From positions 1 to 37,441 of the forward strand of contig JAQUUG010000002.1 of the NCBI GenBank assembly GCA_028693965.1: a DNA stretch of 37,441 bases, in the 5' to 3' direction. A program made the position numbers and the translations under genes. Below, piece after piece: positions 8,610 through 36,420 of the stretch (position 1 is the stretch's first letter; each line of letters starts with the position of its first letter). The notes beneath the pieces were generated by a model, which was not told the DNA's origin, searched no databases, and saw nothing but the letters and a program-made list of their open reading frames with translations. Origin of the DNA: Bacilli bacterium (GTDB lineage Bacteria; Bacillota_I; Bacilli_A; RF39; UBA660).

Positions 8610-8767
8610 GTTGATATGTCAATTTTTATACATTAATTACATTTATATATTGGCTTTCAAATAAACTTGAGAAAAAGAATATTACTGGCAAATATTTTGG
8701 TGAAAAAAATTAGAATTGATGCAATAAAATGATATTAATATACGTTATTATTATGAGAGGTGGTAGA

Positions 8768-9307
8768 ATGAAGTTAATTAATTTATCATTAAATTCCGGA
8801 ATATGTGATTCATTGATTAATAAAATTGCAAAAGGTGATGAACGAGCATTTGATGAATTATACGAAAAAACAAAAAGAATAGTATTTAGTACAGCCCTGT
8901 CAATAACAAGATCAGTTAGTGATTCTGAGGATATTACTCAAGAAGTTTATGTTAGAATATTTGAAAAAGCAGGATCTTATAAGGATAAAAATAAGCCTCT
9001 CGCTTGGATATATGCCATAACTAAAAATCAATCTATTTCAGTAATAAGAAAAAAGCAAAAAACACAAGAAATTGAAAACATGGAAGATGATATCAGATTT
9101 TCCAACATCAGTAATAATATAGATAAGTTAATCTTAAAATCAGCTTTGGAAATTTTAACTGAAGAAGAATTACAAATAGTAATGCTACATAATTCTGGGC
9201 TAAAACATAGAGAAATAGCTACATTATTGGATAAACAATTATCAACAATATTATCAAAGTATAATAGATCATTGTTAAAAATGAAAAAATATTTGGAGAG
9301 TAAATAA
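8768..9307 (+). CDS. ECF-type sigma-70 family RNA polymerase sigma factor
   Basis: Region 2 (DITQEVYVRIFEKA...PLAWIYAITKNQSISVIRK) and region 4 HTH (LTEEELQIVMLHNSGLKHREIATLL). RBS GAGAGGTGG precedes ATG 8768. Confidence 0.8.
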   Translation: MKLINLSLNSGICDSLINKIAKGDERAFDELYEKTKRIVFSTALSITRSVSDSEDITQEVYVRIFEKAGSYKDKNKPLAWIYAITKNQSISVIRKKQKTQEIENMEDDIRFSNISNNIDKLILKSALEILTEEELQIVMLHNSGLKHREIATLLDKQLSTILSKYNRSLLKMKKYLESK

Positions 9308-9318
9308 AGGAGGAATTT

Positions 9319-10527
9319 ATGAAAAGTTTTTCTAATAAACAAATTGAAAGAAGTTTGAAAAAATCAATAAGTAATATAACTTCACAAAAAATGTCCCCTA
9401 ATATTTTAATTGATTATAAGGAGAAATATAAAATGAATAGAAATAAATTATTTTTATCGTTGTTTTTAACAACAGTTACAGTTTTTGTTGCAGTCTTGGG
9501 ACTGGGAATAAATTATTATAATAAAAATTTAAGGATTAATTCAAATATAACAATAGATGTCAATCCAAGTATAATGTTATCAACAAACTTTTATAACAAA
9601 GTTATAAAAGTTAAAGCGTTAAATGATGATGGTGAAGAAATATTAAAGGATATAGACGTTAAAAATTTAACTGTTGAAGAAGCCGCCAATGTAATAATAG
9701 ATGAATTAATAAAAGAAAGTTATTTAGAAGGTGATGGCGCTAATTTATTATTTATGGTTCAAAATAATGATTTAGTAAAAGCACAAGCTATTGAAGCTTC
9801 ATTATTAGAATCAGTTAATCAAAAATTGGATGATGAGTATATTGCTGGAACAGTGATTACTCAAGTTGATACTATAAGAAAAAATATTGATGAAGATATT
9901 AAATCATTAATGGATACTTATGATATATCTTATAGTAAAGCATTATTTATAAGTAATATTATGGAAAAAGATGCAACTTTAACAATAGAAGAGTTAGCAA
10001 CTTTAAAAATCAGTGAAATTAGTAAATTATTAAGTGATAAAAATATTGATATAGATGATATTGTTGGTCATAATAATGATGATAGTATGTATGAGAGTGC
10101 TGCATTAATACAAGCTAAAAAAAGACTGGCTGAAGCAGAACAAACTAAAACTCAAGCAGAAAATAAAGCGCAGAGTTTGGATGATGAATTGCAACAACAA
10201 ACAAAAGCTGGACAAAATACTGATGCTATAGAAAAAGCTTATGAAGAAGCAGAACAAGAAAGAATAAGAGCAGAACAAGAGGTTTTGGCAGCCCAAAAAT
10301 CATATGAGGAAGCAGAAAAAAATAAAGGTAATACAACACAAAATACAGAAAATAATCAAAATAGTAATAGTGAAACAACTAATTCTACGTCAAGCAGTAA
10401 CCAAAAAAATTCAACAACATCAAGTGATACCAATGGTAACGGAGAAAATTCAACAACATCAAGTGATACTAATGGTAACGGAGAAAATGGTGCTGATAAT
10501 TCAGCAAGTAATTCTAATAAAAATTAA
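9319..10527 (+). CDS. putative membrane-spanning anti-sigma factor with coiled-coil and S/T/N-rich tail
   Basis: Starts 12 nt after the sigma gene with RBS AAGGAGG. Short cytoplasmic N-terminus, one TM (LFLSLFLTTVTVFVAVLGLGI), an extracytoplasmic domain, an E/Q/A-rich coiled coil, and a low-complexity tail. Confidence 0.55.
   Translation: MKSFSNKQIERSLKKSISNITSQKMSPNILIDYKEKYKMNRNKLFLSLFLTTVTVFVAVLGLGINYYNKNLRINSNITIDVNPSIMLSTNFYNKVIKVKALNDDGEEILKDIDVKNLTVEEAANVIIDELIKESYLEGDGANLLFMVQNNDLVKAQAIEASLLESVNQKLDDEYIAGTVITQVDTIRKNIDEDIKSLMDTYDISYSKALFISNIMEKDATLTIEELATLKISEISKLLSDKNIDIDDIVGHNNDDSMYESAALIQAKKRLAEAEQTKTQAENKAQSLDDELQQQTKAGQNTDAIEKAYEEAEQERIRAEQEVLAAQKSYEEAEKNKGNTTQNTENNQNSNSETTNSTSSSNQKNSTTSSDTNGNGENSTTSSDTNGNGENGADNSASNSNKN
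10408..10485 (+). repeat. 39-bp tandem repeat x2 inside the anti-sigma tail (NSTTSSDTNGNGE x2)
   Basis: Units 10408-10446 and 10447-10485 differ at one synonymous position (acc/act). Confidence 0.9.
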
Positions 10528-22917: not shown

Positions 22918-23134
22918 TTAAAATTCTCCTTCCGACTTGTTTTTCTATGCCATATAACTTTATCATATATTCTAATATAAGTCAAATATTTTTGATGTTT
23001 TTTATAGCTTATATGATAGTTTATGAATATAAAACTATAATTATTTTATAAAAGATGTTGTAAGATAAATAATCTAATTGACATTACTTAATATTTCTAG
23101 TATATTAGTTGATAGAGATTAGGATGTGATACTA

Positions 23135-24808
23135 ATGAATAAAAAAGCTTTTACTTTAGTAGAAATGATCGCTGTTATTATTGTTTTGGCAGTTATTGCT
23201 TTGATTTCAACACCACTTATATTAAATGCTATTAATAGTTCTAAACAAGCTGCTTTTAAATTAAGCGCTAAAAGTATAGCTGAGGCAGCAGCACAAGGCT
23301 ATAAAAGGGCTCTAATTACGGATTATGTAGCAGAATATACAGAATATGAAATAGTAGATTCAACTATAAATAAAATAGAAGGAAATGTCAAACTTAATTA
23401 TGATGGAAAAAGTCCTGTTAGTGGTAATATTATAATTGATACAGATGGTGAAATTTCTTTGGCTTTTTATGATGGAACAAATTGTGCGAAAAAAGGTTTT
23501 TCGGAAACTGAAGTAACAGTTACTAAAACAACAAAGGGAAATTGTAATGTGCAAAGAGGTTATGAAGAAGAAATATTAAATGGAGCTTATCCAGAATTAG
23601 ATAGTGGTATGATTCCTATATATTATGATGGTAATGTTGCTAAGAAAGCCAATGTTAAAGAAGAATGGTATAGTTATGAAAATCAAAAGTGGGCTAATGT
23701 CATTTTAGTTAAAACTAGTGCTCGTGATAAGTATCAAGATATGGAAACTGGTAAAATAATAGATGAAGATGATATACTTGCTTATTTAGTATGGATACCG
23801 CGATTTAGTTTTAAATTATTTAATATTGCAGGAAGTGTTGATACTGGAAATGAAACAACAATTGATATTGTCTTTGAAAGTAAAACGACAACTAAATCAA
23901 CTATTATAGCTAATGGTAATTATTATACACATCCAGCGTTTACTTTTGGTGATGAAGAATTAAACGGTATCTGGGTTGGTAAGTTTGAAACTAGTGTTGA
24001 TTCTGAGAGTACTTGTTATAGTAGTATGAATACTACTAATTGTAATAATGATGAGCAAAGTCCAAGAATATTACCTAATGTTAAATCATTAATCTATCAG
24101 CAGGCAGCTAATCAATTTTTAACAGCGCAAAAATTTACTAGTGATACTTATGGAATTACTAGTGAGTCTACAATGATGAATAATAGTCAGTGGGGAGCCG
24201 TAGCTTACCTTTCACATAGTGCTTATGGAATTGATAATGAAGTACGAATTAATAACTATGCAAGTAGCAATAATACATTAACAGGGTGTGGATCAAGTGT
24301 TAGTAATGATATATCGACAGCTTCATCAACATGTGACATTATTTATGGTACGGTCACGGATTATAATTATCCACAAAGTACAACAGGTAATATTACCGGT
24401 ATTTTCGATATGGCAGGGGGTACCTGGGAATATGTACTTGGTATGAGATCAGACGCTAATGATGTCCCTTATTCAGGAGTAGACGAAAGTAATAATTCGG
24501 GTTTCAATGGTAATTATTCTAATGCTGAAGGATCTTTAACAACAGGAATAAATTATCCTTTAGAAAAATATTATAATTCTTATCCTTCTTCAACTAGTTG
24601 TAATGTTTATAAAAATGTTAGAGATGCTATTTATATGGTTAGAGGATGGTATGGTGATATAGCTAACTGCCCAGCAACATTATATCCTTGGTATGTTCGT
24701 GGTGGTTACTATAGTTCTGGTATCGAATCTGGCATCTTTGACGCCAGAACCAGCAGTGGTAGATCTAATAATGTATCTTTTAGAACAGTTATTCTTGTAA
24801 ATAAATAA
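23135..24808 (+). CDS. prepilin-type N-terminal domain fused to a large FGE-sulfatase (SUMF1)-like domain
   Basis: MNKKA/FTLVEMIAVIIVLAVIALISTPL is a type IV pilin/pseudopilin leader with Glu+5. C-terminal motifs SQWGAVAYLSHSAYG, GIFDMAGGTWEYVLG, VRGGYY and VSFRTVI follow the FGE-sulfatase pattern (W.yAa / yDM.GNvWEW / RGGsw / GFR). Confidence 0.7.
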   Translation: MNKKAFTLVEMIAVIIVLAVIALISTPLILNAINSSKQAAFKLSAKSIAEAAAQGYKRALITDYVAEYTEYEIVDSTINKIEGNVKLNYDGKSPVSGNIIIDTDGEISLAFYDGTNCAKKGFSETEVTVTKTTKGNCNVQRGYEEEILNGAYPELDSGMIPIYYDGNVAKKANVKEEWYSYENQKWANVILVKTSARDKYQDMETGKIIDEDDILAYLVWIPRFSFKLFNIAGSVDTGNETTIDIVFESKTTTKSTIIANGNYYTHPAFTFGDEELNGIWVGKFETSVDSESTCYSSMNTTNCNNDEQSPRILPNVKSLIYQQAANQFLTAQKFTSDTYGITSESTMMNNSQWGAVAYLSHSAYGIDNEVRINNYASSNNTLTGCGSSVSNDISTASSTCDIIYGTVTDYNYPQSTTGNITGIFDMAGGTWEYVLGMRSDANDVPYSGVDESNNSGFNGNYSNAEGSLTTGINYPLEKYYNSYPSSTSCNVYKNVRDAIYMVRGWYGDIANCPATLYPWYVRGGYYSSGIESGIFDARTSSGRSNNVSFRTVILVNK

Positions 24809-24887: not shown

Positions 24888-25619
24888 ATGTTTATTAAGG
24901 AAGTGATTATATTGTATAAAAATGTATTTGATCGTGTTGAAAAAAAATATTTACTTAAAACAGATAAATATGATGAATTAATTAAACTATTAAGTAATTA
25001 TATGGTTTTAGATGAATATGGCAGTTATACAATAAATAATATATATTTAGATACTGATAATTTTGATTTAATAAGAAGTTCTTTAGAAAAACCGATTTAC
25101 AAAGAAAAAATGAGACTAAGAAGTTATAATCAAACAAATCTTGATAGTAAAGTTTTTTTGGAAATAAAGAAAAAATATAAAGGAATTGTTAATAAAAGGC
25201 GGATTAGTTTAAAGCTAGAAGATGCTAATAAATGGATAGACAGTTATTATAACGGTAATAGTGATTCACAGATCAGTAAAGAAATTACATATTTTATGAA
25301 ACTTTATCAAGTTAAAAGGAAAATATTTATAGCTTATGATCGCACAGCTTATTATAATAGTGAATATGATTTGCGCATTACTTTTGATACTAATATTAGA
25401 AGTAGGGAAACTGATTTATATTTAGAAGCTGGAAATCAGGGAATTCTTTATTTCAAAGAACCTACTTATTTAATGGAAATAAAATGTAATGGTGCAATGC
25501 CGTTATGGTTAACTCAAATTTTATCAGAATTATGTATATATCCTCAATCATTTTCTAAATATGGTAATTTTTATAAACAAAAATTATTGAAAGAAATGGA
25601 GTGTAGAAACAATGTTTAA
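24888..25619 (+). CDS. VTC-domain (polyphosphate polymerase-like, CYTH-fold) protein
   Basis: FDRVEKKYLL, MRLRSYNQ...VFLEIKKKYKGIVNKRR and YDRTAY follow the VTC domain pattern. TTG 24912, after AAGGAAG, may be the real start. Confidence 0.7.
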   Translation: MFIKEVIILYKNVFDRVEKKYLLKTDKYDELIKLLSNYMVLDEYGSYTINNIYLDTDNFDLIRSSLEKPIYKEKMRLRSYNQTNLDSKVFLEIKKKYKGIVNKRRISLKLEDANKWIDSYYNGNSDSQISKEITYFMKLYQVKRKIFIAYDRTAYYNSEYDLRITFDTNIRSRETDLYLEAGNQGILYFKEPTYLMEIKCNGAMPLWLTQILSELCIYPQSFSKYGNFYKQKLLKEMECRNNV

Positions 25620-26283
25620 AAGTATTTTATCGGACGTTACAGGGACGCTAGCAATTAGTGATGGACTTATCTGTATTATATCGTCATTGGTATTAGGAAT
25701 TATTATTGCCTTTGTTCATATGCATAGTCAAAGGTATACCAAAAATTTTATTATCTCTTTAGCTCTTTTACCGGTTTTAGTTCAAGTTGTAATTATGATG
25801 GTAAATGGCAATTTAGGAACATCAATTGCGGTAATGGGAGCCTTTTCATTGATTCGTTTTAGGAGTGTTCCTGGAACTTCCAGGGAATTAATTAGTGTCT
25901 TTTTTGCAATGGCAGTTGGACTTGCTATTGGTATGGGGCATGTTATGTATGCATCAACTTTCACTGTAATATTGTCAGCGGTATTAATTATTATGAGTAA
26001 AACAACTTTTGGAGAAAGTAAAAAACATTATCAAAAACTTAAAGTCTTAATTCCTGAAAATTTAGATTACAATCATGTATTTGATGACGTTTTTAGTAAG
26101 TATACTAATCAATCTAGATTAGATAAAATTAAAACAACTAATATGGGAAGTATGTTTGAATTAACTTATATAGTGATTTTAAAAGATGGTAATGATAAAC
26201 ATTTTATTGATGATTTAAGGTGCCTTAATGGTAATTTAACAATTACTTTATCTAGTAATCTAGAAAATATTAATGAATTATAA
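25612..26283 (+). CDS. DUF4956-like membrane protein (usual partner of bacterial VTC proteins)
   Basis: 8-nt overlap with the VTC gene. Four TM helices with FSLIRFRSVPGTSRELISVFFAMAVGLAIGMG, then a soluble C-terminal domain. Confidence 0.65.
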   Translation: MFKSILSDVTGTLAISDGLICIISSLVLGIIIAFVHMHSQRYTKNFIISLALLPVLVQVVIMMVNGNLGTSIAVMGAFSLIRFRSVPGTSRELISVFFAMAVGLAIGMGHVMYASTFTVILSAVLIIMSKTTFGESKKHYQKLKVLIPENLDYNHVFDDVFSKYTNQSRLDKIKTTNMGSMFELTYIVILKDGNDKHFIDDLRCLNGNLTITLSSNLENINEL

Positions 26284-26602: not shown

Positions 26603-26924
26603 GTGTTAAAAAGGATTTACTTTAATTGAAATGATGGGCGTTCTTGTAATAATAGCTGTGATTGCATTGATAACAACGCCTATTATTAATTATATAATTG
26701 GTGAAATAAAAGAAAATGCTTTTAAAAATAGTTTATATAGTGTTTTTAGAAGCACAGAATATTATTATAAAGAAAACAGTTATGAAACAATACCTACTAA
26801 AGGACTAGATGTTACAAGTGATAAGATAATACTAAAAAATAAAAATGAGGATTTAGATTTAAAAAATGTCACTAATAATGTCTATTGTGGTAATGGTTAT
26901 GTTATTATAACTAAAGTCAGTTAA
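26603..26924 (+). pseudogene. small prepilin-like protein with defective start/leader
   Basis: The frame is open from 26610 and reads KGFTLIEMMGVLVIIAVIALITTPI (a perfect pilin N-terminus). No start codon precedes it in frame (TAA at 26607-26609). GTG 26603 is out of frame by one base across an A5 tract (26608-26612). Confidence 0.5.
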
Positions 26925-26942: not shown

Positions 26943-26974
26943 TAAAAGAACATATCATTAGATATGTTCTTTCA
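26943..26974. terminator. bidirectional terminator between convergent genes
   Basis: AAAGAACATATC-ATTA-GATATGTTCTTT: a 12-bp perfect stem. Confidence 0.65.
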
Positions 26975-26983
26975 ATAGTATAT

Positions 26984-27481
26984 TTATATAGTTGCTTGTA
27001 AATAGTCAATAGTAACATCAAAATTTACACTTTCTGGATTAGCATTAGTTGATGATGCATTCCAAGTAATAACAATTGTTCCATTAGTAACTTCATTAAC
27101 ATTCAGTGTTTCACCAACAATATTAGATAATCCATTAATAACAATATTAAAGTCATCAGTACTATTGTCATTAATATTTAAATTGCTAACGGTGGCTGGT
27201 AACGAACCAGTATTTTTAATTGTGAAAGAAATACTAACGGAGTCACCAGGATATGTTAAGTCGGCATCAACAGTTAAAGATGTTTTAGTACTATCTAGCG
27301 ATGCTGTAGCCTTCGCATCATCTGATATACTAAAACTACTAAATTCAATCTTAAAATCACCAGTTCCTGAAGCTGTACCAGAAATATTTAAATTCGCAGC
27401 TAATAAAGCATAAACTCCGGTTAAAGCTAAAGTAAAGAGTAGAAGCCCGACTAATACCATTTTGTTTTTTTTCTTGTTCAA
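26984..27481 (-). CDS. secreted S/T/N-rich beta-type protein, candidate SipW substrate (TasA/camelysin-like role, homology unverified)
   Basis: TTG start after RBS AAGGTGGTGA. K-rich n-region, hydrophobic core, then VYALLAANLNISGTASG. The mature ~135 aa has alternating polar/hydrophobic beta-strand character. Confidence 0.6.
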   Translation of the reverse strand: MNKKKNKMVLVGLLLFTLALTGVYALLAANLNISGTASGTGDFKIEFSSFSISDDAKATASLDSTKTSLTVDADLTYPGDSVSISFTIKNTGSLPATVSNLNINDNSTDDFNIVINGLSNIVGETLNVNEVTNGTIVITWNASSTNANPESVNFDVTIDYLQATI

Positions 27482-27622
27482 AATATCACCACCTTATAAA
27501 TACATTATTAGTATACCTTTAATAAAAATATTTAAACTCATATTTCCAAACAGCCAAAAATTACTAATTAGTATAATATTAAGCTATTAAATCATAATAA
27601 TAATGATGTGGTATGTGATAAA

Positions 27623-28420
27623 ATGAGAAGAAAAAGAAAAACAAAAATAATTTTAATAATAGTTTTAATATTAACAATGAGTCAAGTTGCTTATGCTTAT
27701 CTTAAAACGTCTTTAAACATTACAGGGCAGGTAGGTGGTAATTATGACGATTCTTATGTTTTGGACAATAATAGTACAAAAGATTTAACAATAACTAATT
27801 TAGAAGTTAATAGTTGGCAAAATGGTAATATTTATTATTATCAATATACTTTTAATGTAAATAATGTCAGTTCCATTGATTACGATAATTTTAAATTACT
27901 GCTTAATTTCAGTGCTGATGTGTTGGTTACAAATATATGGAATTATAGCTATGAGGAAGAAGGAAGTTCTATAACTATTATTAACAATAGCTATGATTTA
28001 AATACTAATAATACTTTAATTGTTTCTTTTATATTACAAACTTCAGTATCTAATTTAAAACTAATAAAAATTAAAATAAGTGCTAACAAAGATACTAATT
28101 TAGTAACTTCTGATCAAATGCAAGTAACGTTTAATAAGACTAATAGTTGGGGAACTTATACATATCAGTATGAGGTTATCATTACTAATAATAGCGGCAA
28201 TAAAATTACTTATTGGCAAATTGAACTGATTTTACCAAACACTACTATTTTTAAAAGTGGCTGGGGTGCTACATACGAAATGAATAATAGTGTTTTAACT
28301 ATTAAAAATGCTAGTTATAACGGCCGAATAGAAAACAAATCTTCTGTTACAATTGGTTTGCAATTAACCACTACTGATGTTAATTTTAAACCAAGTAACT
28401 ATAGTGTTTTAATTAGGTGA
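27623..28420 (+). CDS. secreted protein with two tandem CBM2-like beta-sandwich modules and the same signal-peptide motif
   Basis: MRRKRKTKIILIIVLILTMSQVAYAYLKTSLNITGQVGG. Each module shows the CBM2-type pattern (SW..Y.YQY...I.N.S...I..W.I.L.....I...W.A.Y......L.I.N..YN..I....S..IG). Confidence 0.55.
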   Translation: MRRKRKTKIILIIVLILTMSQVAYAYLKTSLNITGQVGGNYDDSYVLDNNSTKDLTITNLEVNSWQNGNIYYYQYTFNVNNVSSIDYDNFKLLLNFSADVLVTNIWNYSYEEEGSSITIINNSYDLNTNNTLIVSFILQTSVSNLKLIKIKISANKDTNLVTSDQMQVTFNKTNSWGTYTYQYEVIITNNSGNKITYWQIELILPNTTIFKSGWGATYEMNNSVLTIKNASYNGRIENKSSVTIGLQLTTTDVNFKPSNYSVLIR

Positions 28421-28424
28421 TAAA

Positions 28425-29567
28425 ATGAAAAACAAATTATATTTAGTTGGATTATTTTTATATGTTATTTGCTATAAACTATTAATAAATAATTCAAATT
28501 ATTTTTTTATTTATATTATAAATCCTACTATTTGGCTTATTTTAAGCACTTATATCTTTTTTCATAATAAAGATATTTATTATAAATATCAAAAGCAAAT
28601 TATTTATCTTCTTTTTATTATAGCTACTATTTATAATTTAATTTATTATGGGCTAGGATTTATTTTTGGATATGCTAACAATGCTTATGATACTAGTTTA
28701 GAAGGAATTATTATTAATCTATTTAGTCTTGTTATAGTTGCTTTTTGTAAGGAATATATTAGAGCTTTTTTAATAAATAGTATATTTAGAAACAAATTTT
28801 TTTACTATTTCTTAATAACTATCTTTTTTATTATAAGTGATTTAAATATTCAAACTATATATAGTGATATAACAGATAAAAGTGATATATTTATTGTTTT
28901 TTTAGAAAATGTTACACCTAGTCTTACTTATAATTTTTTAGCGCTTTTTCTAATTATTCACGGTGGAATTTGGTCAAGTTTTATATATAAATGTTCTTTT
29001 ATTATTCCTAGTTTAATAATAAATATTACGCCTAAGTATGAACTTATGGAAACAACGATATTTAATGTTTTAACTCCTGTTTTTACATATTTATATATTA
29101 ATTATAATATTGAAAAAAAGAAAAAAGATTCTAAAAGATATATTGAATCTCCTAAAAAATGGATACTCATTTTTTCATTGTCTTTAGTATTATTACTCTT
29201 TTTTTTAGGTGTTTATCCAGTTAAACCTGTAGTTATATTATCAGCTAGTATGAAACCTAGTATAAAAGAAGGTGATTTAGTTATTGTTACACCTTGTGAT
29301 ATAACTAATATTAAAGAAGGCACTATTATTCTTTACAAATTAAATAATTATCAAGTTTTACACCGTGTTGTTGATGTTATTAATAGCGAGGAGGGAATAA
29401 AACTAGTTACTAAAGGAGATAATAATAACAAAAAAGATAGTGGTAGTATTTCAGAATCAAATATAATAGGGTGTTATCAATTTCGAATCCCTTATTTGGG
29501 ATATCCATCTTATTTATGGCATAAATTTTTTCAAAATCAGGAAGTTGATGTAGAAATTGGTGATTAG
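28425..29567 (+). CDS. SipW-type (ER/archaeal-type) signal peptidase I with ~260-aa polytopic N-terminal extension
   Basis: RBS AGGTGA overlaps the upstream stop. The C-terminal ~115 aa carry SASMKPSIKEGD (Ser nucleophile box, nt 29241-29258), VLHRVV (His box) and KGDNNNKKD. They are preceded by about 8 predicted TM helices plus the canonical anchor. Confidence 0.75.
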   Translation: MKNKLYLVGLFLYVICYKLLINNSNYFFIYIINPTIWLILSTYIFFHNKDIYYKYQKQIIYLLFIIATIYNLIYYGLGFIFGYANNAYDTSLEGIIINLFSLVIVAFCKEYIRAFLINSIFRNKFFYYFLITIFFIISDLNIQTIYSDITDKSDIFIVFLENVTPSLTYNFLALFLIIHGGIWSSFIYKCSFIIPSLIINITPKYELMETTIFNVLTPVFTYLYINYNIEKKKKDSKRYIESPKKWILIFSLSLVLLLFFLGVYPVKPVVILSASMKPSIKEGDLVIVTPCDITNIKEGTIILYKLNNYQVLHRVVDVINSEEGIKLVTKGDNNNKKDSGSISESNIIGCYQFRIPYLGYPSYLWHKFFQNQEVDVEIGD

Positions 29568-29578
29568 GTGGTGATATT

Positions 29579-30619
29579 TTGAAAAAAAATGACAAGTACC
29601 GCATTATAATTTTATTGTGTACTGTCTTTTTAATAGCTATTTTATTACTATTAAATGTTTTTTTTAGTATCAAAAAATTATGGTTTCGTAGTGTTTTATA
29701 TCAGGGCAATATAACTCATAATATGAATTATGAAGTACATATTTTTGAAAATAATTATATTGAAAATGATGTAATAACTAATAACTATTCTTTTATTACG
29801 GATTTAGTAGATTACCTTGTTTTAAATTATAATTATACATATAACTTTAATAAAACGATGAATCTAAACTATTCATATGTAATAAAAGCTAATGTTATTA
29901 GTAATGATGAAGAAAATAGTACTAATCCGGTCCTAAATAAGGAATATATTTTATTTTCAAGTGATAATAAGGAAATCTTTTCTAATACTATTAATATTAA
30001 TGAAAGTACCAGTCTTAGTTTAATAGAATATAATGATTTAATAAATAATTTTATCGAAGATTTTAATCTTTCTTTAACTAGTGTATTAGAAGTGAAGTTA
30101 ATTGTTAATATTGAAGGTGATATCAATGATAATAATATTAATAAGGAACATTATCTTCTTTTTTCTATTCCTCTTGATGCTAAGACTTTTGATATTACAA
30201 CTTCAACTAATTTTACCAAAGAAGAAAAAATTTATAAAAGTGAAGATATTGATGAAAAGGAAATATATGTTGATATCATTATAAATATCTTGGTTTTATC
30301 AATTTTAGTAGGATGTAGTTACTATATTACTAAACATATTTTAGATAAATATAATAGTAAATATCATATGGAAAAGACTAAAATATTAAAAGACTATGAT
30401 AGTATTATTGTTGAAGTTAAAAGTTTTGTTAATTACATGAAGTGGGAAACGGTAGAAGTTGAAACTTTTGAAGAATTATTGAATCTCTCAAATGAAGTTT
30501 TTGAACCTATTTTCTTTTTTGAACAAGGAACATACGCTAATAGGGAAGCTTGGTTTTGTATTTTAAGAGAAAAAGTTTTATATAAGTATGTCATTTATAA
30601 ACAAAATAGTGTAAAATAA
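29579..30619 (+). CDS. bitopic membrane protein of unknown function (N-terminal anchor, ~200-aa ectodomain, second TM, ~90-aa cytoplasmic tail)
   Basis: TTG start after RBS AGGTGGTGA, 11 nt after the peptidase stop. TM1 is IIILLCTVFLIAILLLLNVFF and TM2 is IIINILVLSILVGCSYYI. May correspond to the DUF5305 family, but that is from memory only and unverified. Confidence 0.55.
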   Translation: MKKNDKYRIIILLCTVFLIAILLLLNVFFSIKKLWFRSVLYQGNITHNMNYEVHIFENNYIENDVITNNYSFITDLVDYLVLNYNYTYNFNKTMNLNYSYVIKANVISNDEENSTNPVLNKEYILFSSDNKEIFSNTININESTSLSLIEYNDLINNFIEDFNLSLTSVLEVKLIVNIEGDINDNNINKEHYLLFSIPLDAKTFDITTSTNFTKEEKIYKSEDIDEKEIYVDIIINILVLSILVGCSYYITKHILDKYNSKYHMEKTKILKDYDSIIVEVKSFVNYMKWETVEVETFEELLNLSNEVFEPIFFFEQGTYANREAWFCILREKVLYKYVIYKQNSVK

Positions 30620-30650: not shown

Positions 30651-30776
30651 AAAGTTTTGAAGACATATTTATTGAATAATGGAACAGTAAAGGCTACAAA
30701 ATCTAATACTTATGGTCAATTAGACGATGGCACAAAAGTTAATAAAACAACCTCTGTTGATATTATGTTTAAATGA
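30651..30776 (+). pseudogene. RCC1-repeat-like gene fragment
   Basis: A 41-codon open frame with no start reads KVLKTYLLNNGTVKATKSNTYGQLDDGTKVNKTTSVDIMFK. The G.V.a.G.N.YGQLGDGT pattern is recognisable. Confidence 0.3.
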
Positions 30777-35511: not shown

Positions 35512-36420
35512 ATGAATTATTATAATGAAATTAAAAAAGAATTAATTAATAATGAAGTATATAAACGGGCTAAAGATTATAGTAAAAATAGAAGTGATTT
35601 AAATACTTATTATAATGTAGGTAAATTACTGATAGAAGCTCAAGGTGGAGAAAATAGAGCAAAATATGGTGATAATTTAATCAAAGAATATTCAAAAAAA
35701 CTAACTTTGGAAATAGGAAAAGGATACTCTTCTAGAAATTTGAGGAGTATGAGGAAATTTTATATTTTGTTTAAGGATGAAATTTGGCAGACGCTGTCTG
35801 CCAAATTAACCTGGAGTCATATTCAAGAATTATTGTGGATTGAAAAATACAATAAAATTATATATTATTTAAAAATATCTGATAACTTAAATCTTTCGGT
35901 TAGAGAATTAAGAACTAAAATTAAAAACCAAGAATATGAAAGATTAGATGATAGCACTAAAGAAAAACTAATAAATAATGAAGAAAATAAAATTGAAGAT
36001 TTTATTAAAAATCCCATATTAATTAAAAATAGTTATAATTATAGTGAAGTAACCTAAAAACTATTAAAACAATTAATATTAGAAGATTTGGATAGTTTTT
36101 TGACTGAACTAGGTAGTAGTTTTACTTATATAAAAAATGAATATAAAATAAAAATTGGCAATAGGTATAACTATATTGATTTATTGTTGTATAACATAGA
36201 TTTTAATTGTTATGTAGTAGTTGAACTTAAAGTTACGGAATTAAAAGCTGAACACATAGGGCAAATCCAAAAATATATGAATTATATTGACAAAAATATA
36301 AAAACAATTAATCAAGATAAAACAATAGGAATTGTTATTTGTAAAAATCATAATAAATTTATAATGGAATATTGTAGTGATGATAGAATATTTGTAAAGG
36401 AGTATAATTTAATTATTTAA
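35512..36420 (+). pseudogene. DUF1016/YhcG-type PD-(D/E)XK nuclease split by one in-frame TAA
   Basis: The N-terminal YhcG-like helical part (35512-36057) and the C-terminal nuclease core (LTELGSSFTYI...YIDLLLYN...VVVELKVTELKAEHIGQIQKYMNYID, 36088-36420) lie in the same frame. They are separated only by TAA 36055-36057 plus 10 sense codons. Confidence 0.65.

Follow-up and report, generated by a model that had tools for sequence, protein, structure and literature searches.

What is built by a cluster that places a signal peptidase between a secreted protein and a membrane protein, opposite the gene of a second secreted protein? The question is raised by four genes in a 37,441-nucleotide (nt) stretch of DNA from an uncultured member of the Bacilli (contig JAQUUG010000002.1 of assembly GCA_028693965.1; hereafter the window). 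A 165-amino-acid (aa) protein (P165) is encoded at 26984-27481 on the minus strand, and diverging from it on the plus strand are the genes for a secreted 265-aa protein with two CBM2 domains (P265, counted from ATG; 27623-28420), a 380-aa dedicated signal peptidase I of the endoplasmic reticulum (ER)/archaeal type (28425-29567) and a 346-aa DUF5305 protein (P346; 29579-30619). The cluster probably encodes an extracellular fibre of the AbpX type, a clade of the TasA superfamily, together with its dedicated processing machinery; P165 is proposed to be the major fibre subunit, and we infer that it polymerises. A preliminary description of the locus had viewed it as an analogue of tapA-sipW-tasA of Bacillus subtilis, in which a dedicated peptidase serves export and assembly, with which the present results agree, and also as a candidate for an undescribed system. 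The latter view is abandoned here, as clear homology to characterised TasA/BsaA-type operons was found at the level of the AbpX clade: the cluster is a member, from an uncultured Bacilli lineage, of the AbpX-type branch of the TasA-superfamily fibre systems.

P165, a proposed AbpX-like subunit

In a single-sequence phmmer search, the top PDB matches of P165 were two archaeal AbpX entries, 9rhp (E = 9e-4) and 9sj2 (E = 2e-3); the former is titled 'Archaeal bundling protein X', and both represent AbpX of Pyrodictium abyssi (bioRxiv 10.64898/2026.01.04.697558; PMC12518558). P165 and AbpX share the core Y-P-G-x-x-V-x-[IV]-x-F-T-[IL]-x-N-x-G-[ST]-[LI]-P-A. A profile of 29 P165 homologues again retrieved AbpX from the PDB (E = 4e-3), followed by the TasA fibre. 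P165 itself reaches the threshold of no family in Pfam or NCBIfam, scoring 13.3 bits against Pfam PF12389 (cut-off, 22.5) and 13.1 bits against NCBIfam NF046066 (cut-off, 450), and weak matches to Pfam Peptidase_M73 (the TasA/camelysin family) were obtained for 22 of the 29 members of the P165 family (best E = 2.1e-5). The relation of P165 to TasA and camelysin thus appears to lie at the superfamily level only.

A bridge profile (A4) was built from five canonical AbpX-like subunits whose genes adjoin those of homologous peptidases, in Chloroflexota and elsewhere (loci L023, L008, and L007). It matches AbpX 9sj2 with an E-value of 3.3e-9, aligned from W2, and also TasA (5of1 and 8aur) at ~3e-3. 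Aligned by hhalign, the P165 family matches the A4 profile with 85% probability (E = 6.6e-6) and a 223-aa protein of L007 with 88% probability. Only the joint A4 profile worked in this way; the single neighbours L007-183 and L008-239 gave no matches in the PDB.

Mature P165 comprises 140 residues and has an isoelectric point (pI) of 4.05, with 11.4% D+E and 2.9% K+R; the corresponding values for AbpX are a pI of ~4.0 and 14.6% D+E (bioRxiv 10.64898/2026.01.04.697558). Its AlphaFold2 (AF2) model (pLDDT, 81) is an eight-stranded beta sandwich with a low-confidence N-terminal extension, as has likewise been reported for the monomer model of AbpX (bioRxiv 10.64898/2026.01.04.697558). P165 is also the best conserved of the four gene products (51-79% identity, compared with 30-47% for the other three), which fits a major structural subunit. 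By sequence, P165 is therefore assigned to the TasA superfamily with AbpX as its closest relative, and the earlier impression that the substrates of the peptidase are not TasA-like has to be revised for this protein at the superfamily level.

The shared N-terminal motif and proposed polymerisation

The N-termini of P165 and P265 show 38% identity over 40 residues (BLASTP) and contain a common motif, V-Y-A/L-L-A-A-N-L-N-I-S-G-T-A in P165 and A-Y-A/Y-L-K-T-S-L-N-I-T-G-Q-V in P265, in which the slash marks the predicted cleavage position. The motif had already been pointed out in the preliminary description, and it is real: all six reading frames of the window together contain just two instances of the pattern Y[AS]x[LW]xxxLx[IV]x[GN], one in P165 and one in P265, whereas ~0.055 occurrences are expected per 34,000 shuffled residues. 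The similarity is not a chance one. The motif is kept in 14 of 15 P165 homologues and in all P265 homologues but one, which is an N-terminally truncated open reading frame (ORF) call, and L27, L31, and I33 are nearly invariant among the 29 P165 homologues.

The predicted signal peptide of P165 (residues 1-25; 27407-27481, minus strand) would be cleaved after V-Y-A25 and is followed by a predicted N-terminal donor strand (residues 26-37, LLAANLNISGTA; 27371-27406, minus strand); residues 26-37 of P265 are YLKTSLNITGQV. The residues at -3 and -1 (V-x-A in P165 and A-x-A in P265) fit cleavage after residue 25, and the -3/-1 rule thus lends independent support to a cut after Y-A25. In the solved AbpX fibre, W2, L6, L8, A10, and I12 of the donor strand are buried and E4 binds calcium (bioRxiv 10.64898/2026.01.04.697558). 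The mature N-terminus of AbpX reads xWSETLSLSATISTGSLDVDI, and the hydrophobic positions of the mature P165 strand (L2, L6, I8, and A12) are in register with this donor strand; L2, L6, and I8 are found in both P165 and P265, in the register of AbpX W2/L6/L8. When P165 is aligned with AbpX-like proteins, Y24-A25 falls on Y-A, L27 on W2, L31 on L6, and I33 on I8. Similar starts are seen in the secreted neighbours of three distant loci of the peptidase family (L007, L008, and L023, the last from a Chloroflexota genome): that of L023 begins ...GAAYA/LWYEDLTLSATV, whose W2-E4-L6-L8-A10-V12 is essentially the AbpX donor strand, and others of this set begin ...SAYT/LWFEDLTLAANV and ...GAGYA/YWTQALTINNTV. 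The shared motif is best read as a predicted AbpX-type cleavage site followed by a putative N-terminal donor strand.

On this basis, both secreted proteins would be exported by Sec and cut after Y-A (residue 25) by the polytopic ER-type signal peptidase, probably together with the DUF5305 protein. Cleavage would free an amphipathic N-terminal strand of ~12 residues (x-L-x-x-x-L-x-I...), and the strand of one P165 molecule would enter the open beta-sandwich groove of the next by donor-strand complementation, building a thin acidic fibre without a chaperone. P265 would occupy only the groove end of the fibre, because it has complete domains and no acceptor module, and its role there would be that of an adhesive tip binding polysaccharide or of a nucleator or anchor like TapA.

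Several observations weigh against such a fibre. Position 2 of the strand is Leu in nearly all members, not the Trp clamp or aromatic residue of AbpX-like proteins, and position 4 is not acidic, being Ala or Thr in the P165 family and Thr, Ser, or similar in the CBM2 family, where AbpX loci have Glu or Asp. The calcium ligands D46, D48, and E52 of AbpX align to A60, D63, and T67 of P165, of which only D63 matches. The single-sequence similarity between P165 and AbpX is modest (E ~1e-3) and spans about half of the protein. In a Foldseek search of the PDB with the full-length P165 model, including the signal helix, generic beta-sandwich matches were obtained, none with E <= 1e-3; TRAP-beta and CEP192 lead, the TasA fibre ranks 23rd (E = 0.04), and AbpX lies outside the top 50. 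In the peptidase, nine membrane helices and a short C-terminal helix were counted, compared with the ten stated for AbpX-associated peptidases, and polymerisation at this locus is argued from genes and single-chain models. Because of Leu2, the non-acidic position 4 and the mostly missing calcium ligands, calcium-dependent assembly in the manner of AbpX is not expected, and calcium triggering of P165 fibres is doubtful.

The missing aromatic clamp and acidic residue would also suit a different role for P165, as an acidic protein of the surface or matrix that stays monomeric or forms a lattice and whose motif serves only as a recognition signal for the specialised peptidase, in the way of a SipW-cognate signal peptide. 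The motif abuts the core of the signal peptide, and in the AF2 model the helix continues through residue 30; the Foldseek result, with no specific match to a fibre subunit, points the same way. Against this stand the hydrophobic positions 2, 6, and 8, exactly in register with buried residues of AbpX, and the presence of the same strand on the structurally unrelated P265, as expected for co-assembly. Moreover, the experimentally studied members of the superfamily cited here (TasA, AbpA, AbpX, TafE/TafA, and BsaA) all polymerise by strand donation. A non-polymerising P165 is accordingly considered improbable, and an AbpX-type fibre remains the preferred reading.

An additional stabilisation is known from BsaA of Clostridium perfringens, in which Asn of the donor strand forms an intermolecular isopeptide bond with Lys and Glu of the acceptor (PMC11580942). 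A lock of this Asn-Glu-Lys type was considered for P165 and rejected, as the donor Asn varies among the homologues (N/T at position 5 and N/R/T/E/S at position 7).

The proposed processing machinery and the double-CBM2 protein

TIGR02228, the model of the archaeal-type signal peptidase I, is matched by residues 249-364 of the peptidase with an E-value of 1.2e-27 and a score of 96.7 bits (cut-off, 51.85), and Pfam assigns its C-terminus to S26/S24; its score against the SipW equivalog NF046067 is 71.9 bits (cut-off, 190). The protein consists of an N-terminal domain (N-domain) of eight membrane helices (~1-238), an anchor helix (243-260) and a catalytic domain (267-355), and the catalytic set of the ER type (Ser275, His313, Asp332, and Asp338) is kept in the family alignment. 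The AF2 model (pLDDT, 81) shows the eight membrane helices, a Lys-rich loop, the anchor helix, a catalytic beta domain, and the short C-terminal helix; human SEC11A/C heads its Foldseek matches (E = 2.6e-5). In two related loci (L002 and L003), a separate 179-aa housekeeping S26 peptidase adjoins the module, and the 380-aa enzyme is therefore an additional, dedicated one.

The large extra membrane domain noted in the preliminary description is thus present, but it is, like the DUF5305 partner, a hallmark already reported for AbpX and Tafi loci (bioRxiv 10.64898/2026.01.04.697558; PMC11821415; PMC12337348). Pfam finds nothing in this N-domain, either in the window protein or in 14 family members, at E <= 10. 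Within it, R113 and P203 are kept and E110, G78, and G82 are nearly invariant; E110-x-x-R113 and N98 are also listed among its conserved residues. Searched against 1.84 billion representative proteins, the N-domain profile retrieved 1,645 cluster representatives with E <= 1e-3, of which 1,335 reach E <= 1e-10; among the best 150 matches listed, nearly all are 370-410 aa long with the domain at residues 1-245, as expected for a fusion to a peptidase. The N-domain is homologous to that of the peptidases encoded beside canonical AbpX-like genes in Chloroflexota. A word-indexed protein search with its profile returned mostly Chloroflexota relatives and no archaeal names, so that homology to the P. 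abyssi peptidase is not directly shown. A CPBP/Rce1-like fold was considered for the N-domain and set aside, since the Foldseek match to the CAAX protease Rce1 (4cad_L; rank 26, E = 0.33, TM 0.34/0.45) is a weak lead only and the catalytic motifs of CPBP are absent, there being no conserved His. One representative of the N-domain family (P0080) is 655 aa long with the N-domain at 273-510, which suggests that an upstream protein similar in size to P265 has been fused to the peptidase or else that the gene call reads through.

P346 matches Pfam PF17231 (DUF5305) with an E-value of 2.9e-17 (63.3 bits against a cut-off of 29), so that the fourth gene, earlier left without an assignment, can be given one. 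The protein had also been called bitopic, but hydropathy reveals two hydrophobic segments (~4-36 and ~226-255), not a single pass: an N-terminal transmembrane (TM) segment, an extracytoplasmic domain, a second TM segment at ~226-255, and a cytoplasmic C-terminal domain. Two TM segments are also part of the published description of DUF5305 proteins (bioRxiv 10.64898/2026.01.04.697558), for which a role as accessory subunit of the signal peptidase has been proposed in the case of TafG and at AbpX loci (PMC11821415, PMC12337348, bioRxiv 10.64898/2026.01.04.697558). By analogy, P346 is proposed to be an accessory subunit of the 380-aa peptidase.

P265 consists of a signal peptide (residues 1-25, with the predicted A-Y-A25 site), the predicted donor strand (26-37) and two CBM2-like beta-sandwich domains; two stretches of the protein match Pfam CBM_2 (PF00553) with an E-value of 2.5e-15 and a score of 57.1 bits (cut-off, 24). 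Homologues of P265 begin with MRR or MRK, as does P265 itself. Domain 2 aligns to the cellulose- and chitin-binding CBM2s of EngD of C. cellulovorans, ChiC, and Cex, and it shares with EngD the residues W, W, and Y at the three aromatic positions of the surface; the two domains are predicted polysaccharide-binding modules. P265 carries the donor strand and complete CBM2 domains but no AbpX-like acceptor domain, and would therefore be a donor-only subunit capping the groove end of the fibre, probably a tip adhesin or an anchor. Were growth to proceed from the membrane with P265 as the first subunit, P265 would become a distal polysaccharide-binding adhesin. In one related locus (L018), the donor-strand protein encoded upstream of the subunit gene is 347 aa long, compared with ~270 aa elsewhere, and matches P265 at its N-terminus only; the tip or accessory subunit seems to vary even inside this lineage.

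P265 may alternatively be the cell-proximal part of the same fibre, a TapA-like anchor or nucleator that binds the cell's own wall glycan through CBM2. Its gene lies at the tapA position of the operon, immediately upstream of the peptidase gene, and a donor strand in the absence of an AbpX-like acceptor domain would suit this role too. The occurrence of LtaS in L004 and of an Asp/Glu racemase in L002 suggests that the related organisms have walls, and in bacterial AbpX loci wall anchors (SLH and LPXTG) join the fibres via a donor strand (bioRxiv 10.64898/2026.01.04.697558). However, no SLH, LysM, or LPXTG wall-binding domain was detected in P265 by Pfam, a W-W-Y strip of this kind is familiar from the CBM2 domains of cellulases and chitinases, which attach to insoluble polysaccharide outside the cell, and a donor-only subunit that enters first would come to lie at the distal end when growth proceeds from the membrane. 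The proximal anchor is considered less likely than not.

CBM2 is typical of cellulases and chitinases, and the cluster might also be an accessory of polysaccharide utilisation, with P265 as a free binder, the peptidase as a general enzyme, and P165 as a coincidental neighbour. A SigI/RsgI-like pair is encoded in the window at 8729-10527 (plus strand), in which a sigma-70 region-2 protein comes first and the central domain of the second protein is of the RsgI-like anti-sigma type (E = 3.3e-21); such pairs sense extracellular polysaccharide in cellulolytic clostridia. On the other side, there is no glycoside hydrolase within the module, the four genes move together between genomic contexts, the housekeeping S26 peptidase beside the module in L002/L003 is separate from the dedicated enzyme, and both secreted proteins have a specialised N-terminal motif in common. 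This explanation is very improbable. The SigI/RsgI-like pair could be relevant to a CBM2-tipped fibre as well.

Within the preferred reading, an AbpX-type fibre carrying P265, a more far-reaching proposal may be put forward tentatively and with low expectation. The N-domain and DUF5305 would form a 'cleave-and-polymerise' platform in the membrane that links cleavage of the signal peptide directly to insertion of the donor strand and replaces a chaperone and usher, the P165 strand would represent a calcium-independent Leu2/Ala4 subclass of AbpX fibres, and the product would be an adhesive pilus with a cellulose- or chitin-binding tandem CBM2 tip, by which these anaerobic Bacilli with reduced genomes would attach to insoluble polysaccharide.

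Conservation, comparison with known systems, and genomic context

The P165 family comprises 56 clusters at 90% identity, all from metagenomes or metagenome-assembled genomes (MAGs) labelled Bacilli or Mollicutes, and is found in 13 GTDB species representatives. Six related loci, representing five distinct genomic places, were annotated; in these, the P165 gene is divergent from genes for CBM_2, a 370-389-aa peptidase, and DUF5305. By tblastn, all related loci with enough flanking sequence carry the four genes in the same order, and the co-occurrence named as a check in the preliminary description was thus found. In contrast, the flanks vary: NUDIX and peptide deformylase (def); dnaJ-murI and holA; ltaS and an ars operon; feoAB and yqeG; or pgi and RNHCP. 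The module is conserved as a unit across the related loci of these uncultured low-GC Bacilli MAGs. One of the related genomes is a single 1.49-Mb chromosome. Five module-bearing records (L014, L015, L016, L020, and L022) are titled 'uncultured Muribaculaceae bacterium' or 'Ignavibacteriales bacterium' and are probably mislabelled or mis-binned MAGs. In the distant locus L007, an insertion sequence element (HTH_28 and rve integrase; 9001-10040) lies between the subunit-like gene and the DUF5305 gene, and genes for a histidine kinase and a LuxR-type response regulator are located directly upstream, as reported for bacterial abpX loci.

The AbpX clade of the TasA superfamily occurs in archaea, Bacillota, and Chloroflexota; its subunits have a pI of ~4 and polymerise by donor-strand complementation, and its loci encode minor subunits, tip proteins that vary in fold, a DUF5305 protein described as 'accessory', and a dedicated signal peptidase with ten TM helices (bioRxiv 10.64898/2026.01.04.697558). 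The window cluster shares with these loci an acidic (pI ~4) beta-sandwich subunit of ~140-160 residues with detectable sequence homology, a predicted amphipathic donor strand of ~12 residues in the same register right after the cleavage site, a dedicated TIGR02228 signal peptidase with a large polytopic membrane domain, a DUF5305 accessory gene, and an extra donor-strand-bearing protein corresponding to the tip or minor proteins of variable fold. Apart from the strand residues, the lost calcium ligands, and the helix count discussed above, it differs in that the tip or accessory subunit is a tandem CBM2 protein, that the module contains no SLH/LPXTG anchor, sortase, kinase, or cyclic di-GMP gene, and that its hosts are uncultured low-GC Bacilli.

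The resemblance to tapA-sipW-tasA of B. subtilis lies in a dedicated ER-type (Ser/His) signal peptidase, a donor-strand subunit of the same superfamily, and an accessory secreted protein encoded immediately upstream of the peptidase. However, P165 falls below the cut-offs of Peptidase_M73 and the NCBIfam TasA model, SipW has ~190 aa and two TM segments whereas the present enzyme has 380 aa with an extra eight-helix domain, and the window cluster has a DUF5305 gene and a divergent gene for the major subunit. The TapA/YqxM models of Pfam and NCBIfam are matched by none of its four proteins at E <= 0.1.

In the Tafi system of haloarchaea, TafG (DUF5305) is paired with the signal peptidase TafD, and deletion of TafD blocks subunit processing and abolishes the fibres (PMC11821415, PMC12337348), a phenotype that is, by analogy, the best experimental precedent for the window module. 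Tafi systems (haloarchaea and Thermococcales; TafA/TafE) likewise combine a signal peptidase and DUF5305 with a donor-strand-exchange fibre of TasA-like subunits, but TafD has four TM helices and two external domains, whereas the peptidase described here is polytopic with nine helices. Tafi subunits belong to a different clade (DUF1102/TafE-like), and those of haloarchaea use the Tat pathway; no twin-arginine signal was read in the N-terminus of P165 (MNKKKNKM, without RR), nor a Tat consensus in that of P265 (MRRKRKTK). The sipW-bsaA-bsaB-bsaC system of C. perfringens (PMC11580942) is similar in its TasA-like donor-strand polymer, its dedicated SipW, and its host, an anaerobe of the Bacillota; pilin genes are implicated there, and pilin-like genes occur near the cluster in the window. 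In contrast, there is no VWA protein here, and pilin genes are not conserved neighbours of the module. The preliminary description had placed the cluster in an accessory block with pilin-like genes. Prepilin-like genes are indeed adjacent in the window, but pilin genes lie beside the module in none of the six annotated related loci, and a functional link between the two was rejected.

The four ORFs of the cluster are arranged as tightly as previously described. The P165 gene starts with TTG, preceded by the ribosome-binding site (RBS) AAGGTGGTG; the RBS of the peptidase gene, AGGTGA, overlaps the TGA stop of the P265 gene, and 11 nt separate the peptidase stop from the P346 start. Just past the P165 stop, at 26945-26972, lies the hairpin AAAGAACATATC-ATTA-GATATGTTCTTT with a perfect 12-bp stem and a folding energy of -17 to -18 kcal/mol as RNA of either strand. 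It is followed by a U-run on the minus-strand transcript and is likely to be the intrinsic terminator of the P165 gene; owing to its AT-rich stem, it went undetected in a scan for consensus terminators. Both promoters are presumed, by position alone, to lie in the 141-nt divergent intergenic region (27482-27622). A promoter scan was uninformative in this DNA of ~25% GC (61 sites, compared with 46 +/- 8 expected), and the GC content is ~25% throughout the window.

Elsewhere, the window contains recG, an ars operon, the SigI/RsgI-like pair, a two-component system, an Rnf cluster, prepilin-like genes, a VTC/DUF4956 pair, yqeG-yqeH-DUF87, and spoVS, and this gene content marks the host as an anaerobe of the Bacillota. 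No match was obtained when the window was scanned with Rfam and for tRNA genes. Upstream of the cluster, the gene at 23126-24808 (plus strand) encodes a protein of 560 aa whose N-terminus carries the prepilin-type methylation motif (TIGR02532/PF07963); it is unusually large for a pilin-like protein, and its C-terminal ~500 residues have no family match. Amid the pilin-like genes, at 24888-26283 (plus strand), the gene for a VTC-domain protein (E = 2.5e-43) overlaps that for a membrane protein of the DUF4956 family. The pilin-like ORF at 26610-26924 (plus strand) encodes the prepilin motif K-G-F-T-L-I-E-M-M-G-V-L-V-I-I-A directly after an in-frame TAA (26607-26609), with no start codon ahead and the first ATG past the cleavage motif, and looks like a 5'-truncated or decayed pilin gene. 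Downstream of the cluster, yqeG, yqeH, and the DUF87 gene were confirmed, and yqeG-yqeH-DUF87 also adjoins the module in two other loci. In the 276-nt spacer ahead of yqeG, 3' of the DUF5305 gene, a short open frame (30690-30776, plus strand, frame 2) ends in NNGTVKATKSNTYGQLDDGTKVNKTTSVDIMFK and a stop codon; by eye, it resembles a single RCC1-like repeat (G-x-N-x-Y-G-Q-L-G-D-G) and is probably a gene remnant. Two consecutive ORFs further downstream encode DUF1016_N (35512-36057) and the YhcG_C PDDEXK nuclease domain (36088-36420; both plus strand). These are normally the halves of one YhcG-like protein, and the gene at 35512-36420 appears to be split.

These results extend the cross-domain AbpX/TasA fibre systems to uncultured low-GC Bacilli, in the form of a compact, mobile four-gene unit present in at least 13 genomes at the species level. 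The predicted donor strand of P165 is a natural variant without the Trp clamp and the calcium-binding Glu and may serve as a test case for what drives chaperone-free polymerisation. P265 stands out as a candidate for a fibre tip or anchor that binds carbohydrate, and the polytopic N-domain of these peptidases represents a large family of >1,300 clusters that is without a Pfam model.

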